From the NCBI GenBank assembly GCA_964536195.1, contig CAZHVO010000002.1, positions 1 through 51,189 on the forward strand: a stretch of DNA of 51,189 nucleotides, in the 5' to 3' direction. This document shows, one piece after another, positions 22,449 to 38,431 of the stretch. The translations under genes and the position numbers were made by a program. This DNA comes from an uncultured Planctomycetia bacterium (GTDB lineage: Bacteria > Omnitrophota > Gorgyraeia > Duberdicusellales > 4484-171). A model generated the notes under the pieces. The model did not search any database. It had not been told where the DNA came from and saw only the letters and a list, made by a program, of their open reading frames with translations. Within the stretch, counting starts at the first letter, position 1. Every line of letters begins with the position of its first letter.

Positions 22449-23942
22449 CTAGAACCCATACCAATAGTTAGCTAAAGGTTTGGAGTCTGTAGACTGGTCT
22501 GAAATGATATTTTTAAGGCGGGTATATTCTAAAAATCCCTGGTAACCTAATTCTTTACCAAACCCACTTTGTTTAAATCCCCCATAAGGCAACTCATTGA
22601 AAAACATTCCATAGGTATTAATCCAAATTGTACCTGACGATACCTTTTCGGCTAACTTTTCTGCTTTAGATACATCTTTGCTCCAGATACAAGCTGCTAA
22701 AGCAAAAGAAGAGTTATTAGCAAGGACAATCGCTTCTTGGGGTGAAGAAAATTTGCTTAAAGTGGCTACTGGGCCAAAAATTTCCTCTTGGAATATAGCC
22801 GAATCGGGTTTTGCTCCTTCGAATACTGTCGGTTCAAAAAAGAATCCTTTTTTTAATGCTTCATCTTGAGGGATCCTACCTCCACAGAGTAACCTTAAAC
22901 CCTCTCTCTGAGCTTTATCAACATAAGAAATAACCCTATCCCGTTGGAATCTGGAAGCAAGCGGCCCAATTTGACTTTGAAAATCTAAACAATCCCCTAT
23001 CTTTATCTTCTTAGTTTTTTCAACAAACTGATCACGAAAATTATCATAAATAATCTGATCTATCAATATTCTTGAGGTAGCAGTGCACATCTGGCCTTGA
23101 TTTAAGAATATTGAACATAATGAGCTATTTACCGCTGCTTCTAAGTCAGCATCTTTTAAAATTATACTCGCTGACTTACCACCGAGTTCCATGATTAATT
23201 TTTTAACACTCTTAGTAGAATATTCTAAAATCTTCTTACCAACCGCATTGGAACCGGTAAAAGAAATCATATCTACTAAATCACTAGAACAAATAATTTT
23301 TCCTACTTCCTCTCCCGGACCAGGAATAACATTTATTACACCCTTAGGCACACCTACCTCATCAGCTATCCTGCCTAGCTCTAAAGCAGTTAAAGGCGTT
23401 AAGCTTGAAGGTTTTAGAATAACCGTATTACCAGCAGCAAGGGCCTGAGCCATTTTCCAGGAAGCTATTAGCAACGGATAATTCCAAGGAATAATTAAAC
23501 CTACTACACCTCTAGGCTCTCTTAAAAGATTTGCTTTCACCTTTGCTATCTTTGATTGAATATCTTGAATTTTTCCGGTTAAATATTTCTCTAAATTATT
23601 AGCAAAATATTCAAAAGTTGCTGCTGAGGAAGGTATATCCATAAAAGTTGTCTCTTTAATCGGTTTACCTGAGTTTAAACTCTCAAGCTCGGCTAATTCT
23701 TTAGCCTTGGAGAGAATGGTTTGCGATAATTTAAGAAGGAGATTCTTTCTCTCCAGTAAACTCATATCTTTCCACGGACCTTTATCAAAAGCATTCCGTG
23801 CAGATTCAACTGCCAACTTTGCATCTTTGGCGCTGGCCATACAAGCAACAGCAATAGTCTCACCATTTGAAGGATTAATTATATTCTTCTTATGCTTTGA
23901 ATCTTTAAACTGACCATTTATTAATAAGCCATATTTTTTCAT
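22449..23942 (-). CDS. NAD(P)-dependent aldehyde dehydrogenase
   Basis: Catalytic ELGGKSA and NQGQMCTATSR, with the typical PWNYPL and FTGS motifs. Its start overlaps the stop of the upstream aldolase gene by 4 nt. Confidence 0.9.
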   Translation of the reverse strand: MKKYGLLINGQFKDSKHKKNIINPSNGETIAVACMASAKDAKLAVESARNAFDKGPWKDMSLLERKNLLLKLSQTILSKAKELAELESLNSGKPIKETTFMDIPSSAATFEYFANNLEKYLTGKIQDIQSKIAKVKANLLREPRGVVGLIIPWNYPLLIASWKMAQALAAGNTVILKPSSLTPLTALELGRIADEVGVPKGVINVIPGPGEEVGKIICSSDLVDMISFTGSNAVGKKILEYSTKSVKKLIMELGGKSASIILKDADLEAAVNSSLCSIFLNQGQMCTATSRILIDQIIYDNFRDQFVEKTKKIKIGDCLDFQSQIGPLASRFQRDRVISYVDKAQREGLRLLCGGRIPQDEALKKGFFFEPTVFEGAKPDSAIFQEEIFGPVATLSKFSSPQEAIVLANNSSFALAACIWSKDVSKAEKLAEKVSSGTIWINTYGMFFNELPYGGFKQSGFGKELGYQGFLEYTRLKNIISDQSTDSKPLANYWYGF

Positions 23943-24937
23943 TTAAATTTTACCTGTTTGAATATCTCAAATAATCTACTAAAAGGAACATACCAACGTG
24001 AAAGTTGGCCTAATTGTCCATCTAAATTCATCTTACCTTGAGTAACTGCCACAAACGGATCAAGACTACCCAAGAAAACCTGCTTCCAGATATCGTTTGA
24101 TGCTGAAATAATAAAAGGGGCATCTGAATCGTAATCTAGTTTTACAATTCTTCCCTTTTCAAAATTAAATCTATAAGCTTTATCACTTTCCGTTGAAGTA
24201 ATAGCCAGTTTAACGGTTAAATCTAATTCTTCTCCCTTATTAGCTATAAGCTGATCTTTATTGACTAAATCTACTATTGCCTGAACATGCTCAGGGGAAA
24301 ACATTGGGTAAGCTTTATCAGCCTCTAATTTATTCTTTAACGGTTGGTCTAGCTCATCCAATATATTTTTATCAAAAAGCCTGGCTAAAGCAGCTGTACG
24401 CACTGCCTCTTCCAGAGCTTCAATCAAAGCTAAAGCCTCATTAAAATTATCGGCCATAGCAATCGCACCATGATTCTTAAGCACTACTAAATTATTAACT
24501 TTTAAAGCTTGAATCACTTCATCAAGTTCTGTAACTGTTGGCGTATCTTGGCTTACTACCGGAACTTCTCCTAAATAAAACTTAGTTTCAAAGCTAAGGG
24601 CTTTTAATTTTGAACTAACCGCAAAGTAACCATTGATTAAAGGTGGATGACAATGAACTACTACTTTTGAAGGAAAATTCTTATAGACAAGGCTATGCAA
24701 AGGTAATTCTGAACTTGGATGCTTACCCTCTTGAGAATTTTTAGTACTAAGGCTTACCTTTATAATATCTTCCGGTCTAAGGCTTCCTAAAAAGGTTCCT
24801 CCGGCAGTAATAAGAATACTTTCATCATCTAACTTTGCACTTATATTGCCTGATTTTGCCACTGCCAGGCCTTGAGAATATAGACGCTTGCCTACTCTTA
24901 TAATCTCATTCTTTAAAATGCTCTCTTGATCAGCCAT
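23939..24937 (-). CDS. Class II aldolase/adducin-family domain fused to a C-terminal SCP2-like lipid-binding domain
   Basis: The N-terminal ~190 aa have SGNISAK, LHSLVY, VVHCHPP and KNHGAIA, the Zn-His pattern of FucA/MtnB-like enzymes. The C-terminal ~110 aa (IWKQVFLGSLDPFVAVTQGKMNLDGQLGQLSRW) resemble SCP2. Confidence 0.7.
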   Translation of the reverse strand: MADQESILKNEIIRVGKRLYSQGLAVAKSGNISAKLDDESILITAGGTFLGSLRPEDIIKVSLSTKNSQEGKHPSSELPLHSLVYKNFPSKVVVHCHPPLINGYFAVSSKLKALSFETKFYLGEVPVVSQDTPTVTELDEVIQALKVNNLVVLKNHGAIAMADNFNEALALIEALEEAVRTAALARLFDKNILDELDQPLKNKLEADKAYPMFSPEHVQAIVDLVNKDQLIANKGEELDLTVKLAITSTESDKAYRFNFEKGRIVKLDYDSDAPFIISASNDIWKQVFLGSLDPFVAVTQGKMNLDGQLGQLSRWYVPFSRLFEIFKQVKFK

Positions 24938-36800: not shown

Positions 36801-38431
36801 AATTGTTCTCCTGTTTTGAGTTTTCCTTTATCAATCTTTCCGGTTCTATTTTTAGGTAAGCCTCCTACGAATTCAAAGTAATGGGGGATTTTAAAGTGAG
36901 CTAAGTGTTCTTTTAAGAAGTCTTTTAGCTCTTGCTCACTTAAAATCTCCTCTTGTTTAGAAACTATAAATGCTTTAGGAACCTCTCCGCGTAACTTATC
37001 AGCTACACCAATAACAGCAACTTCTTTTACCTTAGGATATCTATTTATCTTTTCTTCAACTTCAGCTAAGGAAACTATTTCTCCGGCCACCTTAATCATA
37101 TCTTTTTTTCTTCCGACTATATAATGAAGCCGGTCAGAGTCAACTCTGACAATATCCCCGGTCTTAAGCCAGCCATCTTCGGTTAATACCTCTTTAGTTA
37201 GACCGGGTTCCTTATAATACTCTCTCATAACCGCTGGGCCCTTAACCCAGAGCTCTCCTTGAGAAGGCCCCTCTAACTTATTACCAGCATCATCGACAAT
37301 TTTTGCCTCGAGATTAAAGTCAAAATAACCAATGCTTGAGATTTTACTATCATCAGAAGGAGAATAAGCATTCGGAGCAGAAGTCTCGGTCATGCCCCAG
37401 CCATTTAAAATTACAGCCTGAGGGCATACCCTATGAAATCTCTTCAAGAGCATTGGCGATGAAGGGGCACCAAAAACAACTGCATATCTTAAACAAGAAA
37501 GGTCAAATTTATCGTACCCTTTTAAGGAAAGAATGGCTACATACATTGCCGGAACAATACAGAATATAGTAACTTTATGGTACTCTATACTCTTTAGAAA
37601 CTCAAAAGGATTAAACCTACTCATAAGAACAAGTGGCGATGTAAAGGTAATCATAAGAAGTATGTAGTCTAACCCGCCAATGTGTGAGAAAGGAACTCCA
37701 CCGCATAAGAAGACATCATCTCCAGATAATCCCAGAAAGTGATCAATTGTCTGAGAAGGATTATCGAGATGCCTATACTCTAAACATACCCCTTTAGGAT
37801 GGCCGGTAGAACCCGAGGTATAAAATATAGCTGCCAAATCATCCTCCCTGTGCTCAACCGAAGGTTGATCAGGGCTACTTTCTTCTAGAGCTACATCCCA
37901 AGAAGTAACTTCGCTTCGCCGCAGGCGAAGTTCAGAACGAAGTTCTGCCGAAGTTCCTTGCGGTAGCTCTGATTGCAAATCAAAACCCTTATCTTTACTT
38001 TGACGTATTTCATGCTTATTCTTACCGCAAGAAAATTCTCCTGATTCTTGCCCACATACAATTATCTTCTCCAAACTTACACACTTAGTCTTAATATTAG
38101 CTAAATCGATTTTTACGGCAGCAATTAAAACTTTTGCCTGACTATGATTTATAAAATTAATTATCTCATTCTCAGTTAACATAAAATCCAGAGGAACTAC
38201 TGCTGAGCCTATAGTAAATACACCTAAAAAGGTGAATATAGCTTCAGGGGTATTGGGAAGGAATGTAGCAACTTTATCGCTGCTGGTTAGGCCTATTTTA
38301 AGAAGGTAATTAGCAAGCCTAAATGAAGAATCTCTAACTTGAGAAAAGGTAATTGCTTTACCTTGAAATAAAATAGCTGATTTTTGAGGATATTGTTCAG
38401 CCTGTTTTGTGAGTAATTTTCTTATATTCAT
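36797..38431 (-). CDS. AMP-dependent synthetase/ligase (acyl- or aryl-CoA/ACP ligase) with an internal insertion
   Basis: IFYTSGSTGHPKGV, GWGMTE, TGDIVRVD and PKNRTGKI are present. An extra ~40 aa precede the AMP motif. Confidence 0.85.
   Translation of the reverse strand: MNIRKLLTKQAEQYPQKSAILFQGKAITFSQVRDSSFRLANYLLKIGLTSSDKVATFLPNTPEAIFTFLGVFTIGSAVVPLDFMLTENEIINFINHSQAKVLIAAVKIDLANIKTKCVSLEKIIVCGQESGEFSCGKNKHEIRQSKDKGFDLQSELPQGTSAELRSELRLRRSEVTSWDVALEESSPDQPSVEHREDDLAAIFYTSGSTGHPKGVCLEYRHLDNPSQTIDHFLGLSGDDVFLCGGVPFSHIGGLDYILLMITFTSPLVLMSRFNPFEFLKSIEYHKVTIFCIVPAMYVAILSLKGYDKFDLSCLRYAVVFGAPSSPMLLKRFHRVCPQAVILNGWGMTETSAPNAYSPSDDSKISSIGYFDFNLEAKIVDDAGNKLEGPSQGELWVKGPAVMREYYKEPGLTKEVLTEDGWLKTGDIVRVDSDRLHYIVGRKKDMIKVAGEIVSLAEVEEKINRYPKVKEVAVIGVADKLRGEVPKAFIVSKQEEILSEQELKDFLKEHLAHFKIPHYFEFVGGLPKNRTGKIDKGKLKTGEQL
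37905..37960. repeat. In-frame GC-rich mini-repeat / hairpin cluster inside the ligase gene
   Basis: The coding strand carries GAACTTCG three times, followed by the inverted copy GCGAAGTT (an 8-bp perfect stem AACTTCGC/GCGAAGTT). It encodes SAELRSELRLRRSEV. Confidence 0.6.

Follow-up and report, generated by a model that had tools for sequence, protein, structure and literature searches.

A conserved Omnitrophota gene cluster predicted to encode an ancestral-type aromatic type II polyketide synthase and a nucleoside-processing module

Aromatic polyketide synthases (PKSs) of type II count as sporadic secondary-metabolite machines that are mostly found in actinomycetes. A first-pass annotation of a 51,189-nucleotide stretch of contig CAZHVO010000002.1 (assembly GCA_964536195.1; hereafter "the window") had proposed that a block of genes located at positions 22449-38431 encodes a complete synthase of this type, with oxygen-independent tailoring enzymes, in an apparently anaerobic and uncultured bacterium. 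This locus raises the question of whether these genes truly encode an aromatic type II PKS and, if so, what the many other enzymes encoded in the block may be doing there. Our analyses make it reasonably probable that the block is a vertically inherited Omnitrophota cluster organized around an ancestral-type (non-actinomycete) aromatic type II PKS and joined by a module predicted to remove 5'-deoxyadenosine.

The ORF listing shows that the block corresponds to exactly 17 consecutive open reading frames (ORFs) on the minus strand, from 38431 down to 22449, which confirms the gene count and the tight packing that had been described: neighbouring ORFs either overlap by 1-14 bp (36797/36800, 35772/35772, 30618/30631, 30161/30168, 29023/29030, 25877/25880, 24930/24937 and 23939/23942) or are separated by gaps of 1-31 bp (18, 1, 27, 3, 9, 18, 31 and 3 bp). 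All the domain labels given by the first-pass annotation were reproduced using Pfam and NCBIfam and, as it had stated, these domain profiles detected no oxygenase domain in any of the 17 proteins. Its descriptions of AT-rich DNA and of OFOR genes were also correct, with a GC content of 35-40% and an OFOR operon found at 11095-13492. At the sequence level, five genes of the block make up the minimal equipment of a type II PKS with its cyclases:

32916..34163, minus strand: ketosynthase KS-alpha with a Cys-His-His triad (ketoacyl-synt domain; motifs ISTGCTAGT, NAYHMT and INAHGSS)
31677..32912, minus strand: chain-length factor (CLF, or KS-beta; ketoacyl-synt domain; motifs IVADKASSA and ICLDGEA)
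31434..31667, minus strand: acyl carrier protein (ACP; PP-binding, 1.5e-11; phosphopantetheine serine in GVDSTEM)
30618..31415, minus strand: PF04199 metal-dependent cyclase (5e-30; H-x-G-T-H-x-D motif as HSGTHLD)
30161..30631, minus strand: monodomain TcmN/WhiE-type aromatase/cyclase (ARO/CYC, of the SRPBCC type; Polyketide_cyc/cyc2; PDB matches to TcmN and WhiE)

Since neither a malonyl-CoA:ACP transacylase (MCAT) nor a phosphopantetheinyl transferase (PPTase) gene was found within the window, the word "complete" is valid for the minimal PKS and its cyclases only.

That this set of genes encodes an aromatic type II PKS appears highly probable from several comparisons. The three motifs of KS-alpha align with those of Act KS and AntD, and the stretches quoted in the first-pass annotation (STGCTAG, IAGATEAPVTPITFGAFD and ASRPFDNKRNGFVL) were all found in its translation. 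Its top matches in the PDB were AntD (363 bits) and Act KS (361 bits), with Bacillus subtilis FabF at 347 bits and the highly reducing ketosynthase Iga11 (6kxd) at only 209 bits. A stretch of five residues is common to KS-alpha, AntD and Act KS and missing in two FabF proteins, and KS-alpha also passes a FabF subfamily model of NCBIfam. The best plasmid-borne relatives of this ketosynthase come overwhelmingly from Streptomyces, and those that were opened (3/3) belong to aromatic type II PKS clusters. Outside of the Omnitrophota, the ketosynthase of the myxobacterium Vitiosangium (L059; such handles designate loci) is 51% identical, and the classical cluster that contains it also encodes a PF04199 cyclase, a PPTase and an ARO/CYC of the didomain type.

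The CLF gene begins 3 bp past the KS-alpha stop and encodes a protein that has a Lys at the position of the catalytic Cys and an Asp in place of the second His, the canonical actinobacterial Gln being absent. Lys or Arg occupies this active-site position in all the Omnitrophota CLFs that were examined, Gln being found only in a Streptomyces CLF, and the corresponding D-K/R-A-S motif is also present in the CLFs of Vitiosangium, of Bacillus bombysepticus and Azospirillum plasmid clusters and of a UBP18-like locus (L145). The CLF is ~30% identical to Act CLF, and it scored 286 bits with FabF structures vs 204 bits with Act CLF. In a neighbour-joining tree (408 columns, 300 bootstraps) built from few taxa, with three FabFs and no aryl-polyene or polyunsaturated fatty acid (PUFA) outgroups, the Omnitrophota KS-alpha fell inside the KS-alpha clade (bootstrap 79), which also contains AntD, Act KS and further ketosynthases of type II PKSs, while the CLF fell inside the CLF clade (bootstrap 100), the two clades standing together apart from the three FabFs. 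The branching of both proteins within FabF, which the first-pass annotation had set as a refutation, was thus not seen in this tree.

The cyclases point in the same direction. The ARO/CYC matched TcmN (2rez, 6e-27 over its full length) and WhiE (3tvr, 2.6e-25), with all TcmN/WhiE matches lying between 6e-27 and 2e-24, and the only other PDB matches at E<=1 were BexL (0.021) and a phage protein (0.19), so that the expected grouping of this SRPBCC protein with ARO/CYC cyclases was borne out by near-exclusive matches to their structures. Tyr35 and Arg69 of TcmN correspond to a Tyr and an Arg in the aligned protein (ELFDEY and WKSSR). With its TTG start at 30631, the longest ORF of this gene extends 14 bp into the cyclase gene; in the source annotation, the start is instead an ATG at 30598 (145 aa), where the TcmN alignment also begins, and this ATG is the likely true start. 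As for the PF04199 family, it is also found in type II PKS clusters of Vitiosangium and Bacillus and corresponds to the OxyN type named in the dendrubin paper (PMC7693217).

The window belongs to ENA assembly ERZ27248885. Judging from its closest sequence relatives, the host of this cluster is Candidatus Omnitrophota: more than 120 database clusters match KS-alpha at 76-90% identity, and those that are named all come from Candidatus Omnitrophota/Omnitrophica. A locus scan using one genome per GTDB species returned 55 loci, including complete chromosomes of 1.28, 1.52 and 1.82 Mb, and 53 of them carry the same Omnitrophota-type block, a few being labelled Planctomycetia, Methanosarcinales or "bacterium". 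The ketosynthase of the Candidatus Susulua stagnicola locus is 93% identical. Copies of the cluster at 89-93% KS identity (L011, L007, L009, L012 and others) have been deposited as "Methanosarcinales archaeon" or "uncultured Planctomycetia", and such contigs are probably mis-binned or mislabelled contigs of metagenome-assembled genomes (MAGs). Altogether, more than 100 loci contain the block, which occurs in three gene orders and is kept there as a unit, as the first-pass annotation would have predicted; its first 14 genes have the same order in relatives wherever the contig permits.

The flank made of TrmA-like, nitroreductase and Era genes recurs in loci with KS identities down to 71%, and the ketosynthase is 10-25 points more conserved than Era in loci that share it: in L020, KS is 82% identical vs 54-59% for the flanks, and in L045, 73% vs 60-64%. 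Conservation above that of the neighbouring Era GTPase is also observed for the CLF and for the B12 radical SAM enzyme described below. Because the flank recurs and because KS outconserves Era, the cluster bears the signature of an old vertical inheritance in Omnitrophota under strong purifying selection, rather than that of a recent island.

If the core of the block is a PKS, what are the genes that surround it? Four of them, which had been presented as tailoring genes, are better read as one nucleoside-processing module, considering the families to which their products belong:

36066..36800, minus strand: hexameric purine nucleoside phosphorylase (PNP)/5'-methylthioadenosine phosphorylase (MTAP)-like nucleoside phosphorylase (PNP_UDP_1, 8e-33)
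24930..25880, minus strand: MtnA/DrdI-like isomerase, aldose-1-phosphate to ketose-1-phosphate (IF-2B, 1e-53; THCN and GSDNLAENGD motifs)
23939..24937, minus strand: class II ketose-1-phosphate aldolase fused to an SCP2 lipid-binding domain, 332 aa (Aldolase_II, 5e-35)
22449..23942, minus strand: NAD(P)-dependent aldehyde dehydrogenase (ALDH; Aldedh, 1e-162; ELGGKS and GQMCTA motifs)

The best solved relative of the phosphorylase is the 5'-methylthioadenosine phosphorylase of S. solfataricus (1jds, 92.6 bits), and its scores with curated NCBIfam models were all far under their cut-offs; it is 64-92% identical in a first set of Omnitrophota loci and 40-48% in rearranged ones. The isomerase remained under the cut-offs of MtnA models (231.6 bits for a cut-off of 271, and 218 for 279) and passed the broad eIF-2B_rel model TIGR00524 (191 vs 185.9), and some lineages have a second, small IF-2B protein in addition. 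In the aldolase, the GNIS, PSSE, HCH and NHG motifs align with FucA and with DrdA (6btd), covering the metal His triad, the catalytic Glu and the phosphate site. Its C-terminal domain matches SCP2 in 14/14 homologues (best E 1e-7), some being only 30-33% identical in that region, and a library of 1.84 billion representatives yielded only ~25 that align with the fusion along its full length, the remaining matches being ordinary aldolases of ~200 aa. What is found in the block is thus not a stand-alone aldolase of that size in a salvage-only context, but an SCP2 fusion inside a PKS cluster. The ALDH stayed under the cut-offs of the betaine-aldehyde, aminobutyraldehyde and phenylacetaldehyde dehydrogenase models. 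Rearranged lineages have these four genes side by side, joined in L146 and L147 by the AMP ligase gene described below. Some lineages have a tungsten-type aldehyde:ferredoxin oxidoreductase beside, or fused to, the reductase and TIGR04076 proteins listed next; since this enzyme or an ALDH is found in every lineage with a contig that reaches far enough, the aldehyde-to-acid step appears conserved.

The remaining eight genes encode an assortment of accessory proteins:

36797..38431, minus strand: AMP-dependent ligase, 544 aa (Pfam AMP-binding, 1e-79, and AMP-binding_C)
35772..36047, minus strand: small DUF2621 protein, 91 aa (PF11084, 3e-08)
34777..35772, minus strand: ketopantoate-reductase-family NAD(P)H oxidoreductase (KPR; ApbA and ApbA_C; TIGR00745, 154.9 bits)
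34191..34775, minus strand: tandem TIGR04076 protein (1e-27, two repeats)
29023..30168, minus strand: major facilitator superfamily (MFS) transporter (MFS_1, 5e-32; weak matches to drug-efflux subfamilies)
28263..29030, minus strand: classical short-chain dehydrogenase/reductase (SDR; adh_short, 3e-45; KR, 1e-12)
26771..28231, minus strand: BchE-like, cobalamin-binding (class B) radical SAM enzyme (B12-binding and Radical_SAM; CPSACTFC)
25877..26767, minus strand: Amidohydrolase_2-family enzyme (PF04909, 4e-19)

The closest NCBIfam model of the AMP ligase is a fatty-acid-CoA ligase, under cut-off, and we propose from its family that it acts as an acyl-CoA or acyl-ACP synthetase for priming or loading. 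Its gene adjoins the PNP gene in the window, and in L146 and L147 it is the first of a series that continues with PNP, isomerase, aldolase and ALDH. The claim that the block contains enzymes never seen in type II PKS clusters does not hold for this ligase: AntG, the AMP-dependent ligase of the Photorhabdus type II PKS cluster, increases octaketide output 13-fold and has been proposed to load the ACP (PMC6638757). The window's ligase also carries a charged, low-complexity insertion of 42 aa, FSCGKNKHEIRQSKDKGFDLQSELPQGTSAELRSELRLRRSE (~residues 135-176, window 37904-38029), that is absent from 5/5 aligned orthologues, including one that is 81% identical.

The radical SAM enzyme scored best, among curated models, with the BchE model TIGR02026 (214.4 bits), which is below the equivalog level (cut-off 481.35), and it scored 89.4 bits with the ladderane-associated TIGR04072 (cut-off 360). 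It is among the best conserved proteins of the cluster overall and the best conserved one in rearranged lineages, with identities of 73-77% where KS is at 62-65%, and the position of its gene between CLF and ACP in one arrangement suggests that it acts at the heart of the pathway. Combining its likeness to BchE with the missing oxygenases, we infer that tailoring is oxygen-independent. The Amidohydrolase_2 protein has 5-carboxyvanillate decarboxylase LigW, ACMSD and IDCase as its best solved relatives and is probably a non-oxidative decarboxylase, which fits the loss of a terminal aromatic carboxylate, while the MFS protein is a probable exporter from its family, and no NCBIfam equivalog reached its cut-off for the SDR.

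Three proteins encoded immediately upstream of KS-alpha are tightly linked to it. In every lineage, that of the UBP18-like L145 among them, the DUF2621 gene has retained its place just upstream of KPR. KPR is fused to TIGR04076 in L003 and, in L045 (6491-9988), a 1165-aa apparent fusion located directly upstream of KS-alpha combines a tungsten-type aldehyde:ferredoxin oxidoreductase and KPR (both recognized by Pfam) with TIGR04076 (recognized by a 57% tblastn match); L050 has the oxidoreductase as a separate gene in the same position. The TIGR04076 protein has 847 homologues and ten invariant Cys or His residues (C20, H22, C43, H48 and C76; C123, C140, C145, H150 and C179). A fold search with its AF2 model (pLDDT 83) gave no PDB match at E<=0.001, and from the literature on TIGR04076 a redox or iron-cluster role can only be guessed; its function is possibly metal- or redox-related.

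Two further gene orders came out of a metagenome scan using the radical SAM protein and of look-ups using distant TIGR04076 proteins. One reads AccA-PadR-DUF2621-KPR-TIGR04076-KS-CLF-radical SAM-ACP-cyclase-ARO/CYC-MFS-SDR and continues with orf130-Amidohydrolase_2-PNP-isomerase-aldolase/SCP2-ALDH. The other, in L146, reads PadR-AMP ligase-PNP-IF-2B-small IF-2B-aldolase/SCP2-ALDH-(radical SAM) and continues with DUF2621-orf150-KPR-TIGR04076-KS-CLF-ACP-cyclase-ARO/CYC-MFS-SDR-Amidohydrolase_2. L147 has the order of L146, interrupted after the cyclase: defence-gene-like TIR_2 and DUF4379 proteins are encoded there (14542-18068), with the cyclase gene on one side and the genes for the radical SAM enzyme and ARO/CYC on the other. 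L145 keeps DUF2621-KPR-TIGR04076-KS-CLF-ACP-cyclase-ARO/CYC-MFS-SDR-Amidohydrolase_2 and has, around its KPR-TIGR04076-KS-CLF core (162-7968), four different B12-binding radical SAM genes that are non-orthologous to the cluster enzyme; the same region also encodes LytB/IspH, an FMN reductase, an amine-oxidase-type flavoprotein, a flavodoxin and an MMPL transporter. Finally, orthologues of the radical SAM gene (74-77% identity) stand alone among unrelated genes in L083 (10001-11461, next to cysteine-synthase-like, NadA and Aminotran_5 genes) and in L136 (5626-7086), so this enzyme is not always clustered with a PKS.

Because nearly all genes between 9.8 and 50.8 kb are on the minus strand and because rlmN begins 8 bp past the ALDH stop, strand and spacing do not set the limits of the operon; these limits were set by conservation across genomes, and the best promoter-like site is consistent with them:

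38464..38491, minus strand: candidate sigma-70-like promoter TTGACT-16-TAAAAT, best match, within the 137-bp gap that precedes the AMP ligase gene

This candidate is a consensus match only, and the total number of matches in the promoter/terminator scan was not above the shuffled expectation. Downstream of the block lie rlmN and rsmB; upstream are the TrmA-like methyltransferase, nitroreductase and era genes, and farther housekeeping neighbours are the OFOR operon, dxs, RNase Y and gltX. A strong hairpin with a 17-bp stem lies just past rsmB (20333-20370) and, since it is the sole convincing terminator-like structure downstream of the cluster, the cluster transcripts may read through rlmN and rsmB. 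Upstream of the block, Rfam detected neither a riboswitch nor any other type of RNA element, its only matches in the window being a tRNA and a distant c-di-GMP-I riboswitch. The latter is a c-di-GMP-I-GGC aptamer on the minus strand (8416-8490; 60 bits for a gathering level of 59), located between a PEP-CTERM gene (8758-9381) and the end of the gene of a 988-aa SdrD_B-domain surface protein, with no ORF of at least 100 aa downstream of it on the same strand.

How might these proteins work together? In the mechanism that we propose, malonyl units would be condensed on the ACP into an unreduced poly-beta-keto chain, with a housekeeping FabD and a PPTase encoded elsewhere. Ring formation would begin with the TcmN-type cyclase, and a later ring would come from the PF04199 cyclase, giving a polycyclic phenol, from which the LigW/ACMSD-like Amidohydrolase_2 enzyme would take off a carboxylate, while the SDR and the KPR-like reductase would adjust keto groups. 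The BchE-like enzyme, whose substrate is presumably the polyketide or an ACP-bound intermediate, would carry out oxygen-independent C-H chemistry (C-methylation or a BchE-style oxidation) in place of the oxygenases used by aerobes, and the MFS protein would export the product. The module would convert a 5'-deoxyadenosine-type nucleoside into adenine, dihydroxyacetone phosphate (DHAP) and an aldehyde, then an acid, thereby clearing the inhibitory 5'-deoxyadenosine that the radical SAM enzyme would release as a stoichiometric by-product. Finally, the AMP ligase would prime or load the ACP in an AntG-like manner, possibly with the acid derived from the module. We favour this disposal function of the module because it is an exact fit for the enzyme families and for their closest solved relatives, and because class B radical SAM enzymes are not known to adenosylate.

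Several observations weigh against this interpretation of the cluster. KPR, TIGR04076 and DUF2621 are linked to KS-CLF as tightly as the cyclases are and yet remain unaccounted for. The aldolase-SCP2 fusion, rare outside of this cluster family, is found in every lineage, and the module is always accompanied by the AMP ligase. L145, with its four other B12 radical SAM genes, has no module within 10 kb. The cluster is split in L015 and L047, and the radical SAM gene is alone in L083 and L136. Concerning the PKS itself, the bootstrap value of the KS-alpha clade is just 79 in a tree small in taxa, and chain initiation may differ from the textbook, considering that the CLF has a Lys instead of the canonical Gln.

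Some of these observations fit a first alternative, which is possible but which we judge rather unlikely: the module and the AMP ligase could form a linear precursor pathway, and not a salvage route, that turns a SAM-derived, 5'-substituted 5'-deoxyadenosine into a starter or a side chain of the polyketide. The nucleoside would be trimmed to X-CH2-CHO, oxidized to X-CH2-COOH and loaded by the ligase, following the logic by which 5'-fluorodeoxyadenosine gives fluoroacetate, and the radical SAM enzyme may itself make the substrate, as an adduct between a hydrophobic acceptor and the 5'-deoxyadenosyl radical. Such a route would fit the conserved aldehyde-to-acid step, the proximity of the ligase gene to the module (contiguous in L146 and L147, next to the phosphorylase gene in the window) and the universal SCP2 fusion, nearly confined to this cluster family, which suggests a hydrophobic 5-substituent. 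The CLF also lacks the Gln to which priming with acetate is attributed, which again would fit. On the other side, the systems with K/R-type CLFs of Vitiosangium, Bacillus bombysepticus, Azospirillum and L145 have no module in the stretch examined. L145 lacks the module together with the ligase and with the orthologue of the radical SAM enzyme; this joint absence would fit the precursor route, but it is equally explained by a salvage tied to that radical SAM enzyme and cannot separate salvage from building-block supply. Moreover, Pfam found no fluorinase-type, chlorinase-type or other SAM-adenosyl transferase among the 17 proteins, and MqnE and HpnH, the radical SAM enzymes that are known to adenosylate, do not depend on cobalamin, class B enzymes normally being methylating enzymes.

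A second alternative concerns the product: although it is unlikely, this compound could be a core cellular metabolite, such as a polyketide quinone/phenol that carries electrons or shuttles redox equivalents outside the cell, in lineages whose quinone pathways are fragmentary, and not a secreted antibiotic. The conservation of KS, CLF and the radical SAM enzyme above that of Era, together with a housekeeping neighbourhood kept across deep lineages with genomes of 1.3-1.8 Mb, would be in keeping with such a role, although the cluster is split or partly missing in L047 and L015. SCP2 proteins can assist oxygen-independent ubiquinone synthesis, as UbiT does; however, the block encodes no prenyltransferase or membrane-anchoring enzyme, and its dedicated and conserved MFS transporter is typical of exported metabolites. 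Omnitrophota have a patchy quinone biosynthesis (PMC10066038) and incomplete electron transport chains (bioRxiv 10.64898/2026.06.07.730766). The two alternatives can be joined, a combination that we consider quite doubtful: the radical SAM enzyme would adenosylate a hydrophobic acceptor, the module would trim the adduct to a C2 arm, a dehydrogenase or tungsten-type oxidoreductase would oxidize this two-carbon aldehyde arm and the ligase would load it onto the PKS, the product being a core metabolite throughout the phylum, for instance an oxygen-independent polyketide redox carrier and not an occasional antibiotic.

That the ketosynthases instead make a reduced chain, as a lipid, ladderane-like or highly reducing (polyene/aryl-polyene) type II system would, is extremely improbable and largely refuted, despite the FabF-like scores of the CLF, the FabF subfamily model passed by KS-alpha, antiSMASH "ladderane" calls for biosynthetic gene clusters in Omnitrophota MAGs (PMC9902471) and the weak TIGR04072 match of the radical SAM enzyme, considering that the latter score is 89 for a cut-off of 360, that Pfam recognized neither a dehydratase nor an enoyl reductase among the proteins of the block, and no FabH or FabD either, that Iga11 scored so low, that both types of aromatic-PKS cyclases are there and conserved, and that the tree sets KS-alpha and CLF apart from FabF, which leaves little room for any FabF/fatty acid synthase, ladderane or highly reducing PKS.

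Coming back to the vertically inherited aromatic PKS cluster with its presumed 5'-deoxyadenosine-removing module, what would it mean for its hosts? Unlike sporadic PKSs, it acts like a core trait of ultra-small, genome-reduced and uncultured anaerobes, in the same chromosomal neighbourhood. Considering that its evolution is slower than that of an essential GTPase and that its neighbourhood is kept, its product would be central to the life of Omnitrophota, in predation, host dependence or redox exchange for example. The cluster would also provide a defined set of enzymes for tailoring aromatic polyketides without oxygen, and its module would be either the first biosynthetic cluster component dedicated to the disposal of its own 5'-deoxyadenosine or a new route to SAM-derived building blocks. 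In earlier work, Omnitrophica KS-CLF pairs were listed in one catalogue (PMC10132072), the "ladderane" calls cited above (PMC9902471) may correspond to this cluster, and the word "polyketide" is absent from two large phylum-wide comparative-genomics papers on Omnitrophota.

Known systems resemble parts of this cluster. Like BchE and other class B enzymes, the radical SAM protein has an N-terminal cobalamin domain and a CxxxCxxC core and, by analogy, may replace an oxygen-dependent step as BchE does; unlike BchE, it scored 214 for a cut-off of 481 and is not a BchE equivalog. The module has the same three families, in the same chemical order, as the DHAP shunt for 5-deoxyribose disposal (MtnP or DrdK, MtnA/DrdI and Ald2/DrdA; PMC6079011); its phosphorylase is closest to MTAP and its aldolase keeps the metal and phosphate motifs of DrdA/FucA. 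It differs from the shunt by the SCP2 domain found on every aldolase homologue, by an isomerase under the MtnA model cut-off, by the small second IF-2B protein of some lineages, by the attached ALDH and AMP ligase, and by its setting in a polyketide cluster. In the fluoroacetate pathway of Streptomyces cattleya, a phosphorylase, an isomerase, a class II aldolase and an aldehyde dehydrogenase act in an identical sequence, the fluoroacetaldehyde dehydrogenase step giving a C2 acid from a SAM-derived, 5'-substituted deoxyadenosine. Its earlier steps are those of the route from 5'-fluorodeoxyadenosine (5'-FDA) to fluoroacetaldehyde (PMC6079011). Unlike in that pathway, Pfam found no fluorinase- or chlorinase-family enzyme among the 17 proteins of the Omnitrophota block, and the output of the module is probably coupled to the AMP ligase and the PKS.

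The closest parallels are the ancestral non-actinomycete aromatic type II PKS clusters, such as den (dendrubin, Dendrosporobacter), ant (AQ-256, Photorhabdus) and clr/wex (clostridia). Like these and the pcy-like myxobacterial clusters, the Omnitrophota block has KS-CLF-ACP followed by TcmN-type and OxyN/PF04199-type cyclases (PMC7693217), and it shares an AMP ligase with ant (AntG; PMC6638757), which the Azospirillum plasmid cluster was judged to resemble. A CLF with D-K/R-A-S instead of the catalytic Cys is common to the Omnitrophota, Vitiosangium, Azospirillum and Bacillus clusters. Several hosts of ancestral clusters are anaerobes, with few or no oxygenases in these clusters, and the several oxygenases that had been taken as the norm for type II PKSs are no general rule, given the anaerobic and oxygenase-poor clostrubin, wexrubicin and dendrubin systems (PMC7693217). 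Anaerobic, non-actinomycete type II PKSs are thus already known, but KS identities between them and the Omnitrophota are only 44-51%, and the Omnitrophota block differs from them by its monodomain ARO/CYC, by a reversed order of the cyclases (PF04199 first), by the absence of a PPTase and by at least six extra conserved genes (KPR, TIGR04076, DUF2621, B12 radical SAM and the nucleoside module). What is new is this architecture, the SCP2-fused nucleoside-trimming module and a vertical conservation at the level of a phylum of genome-reduced nanobacteria, where the ancestral type II PKS clusters are sporadic.

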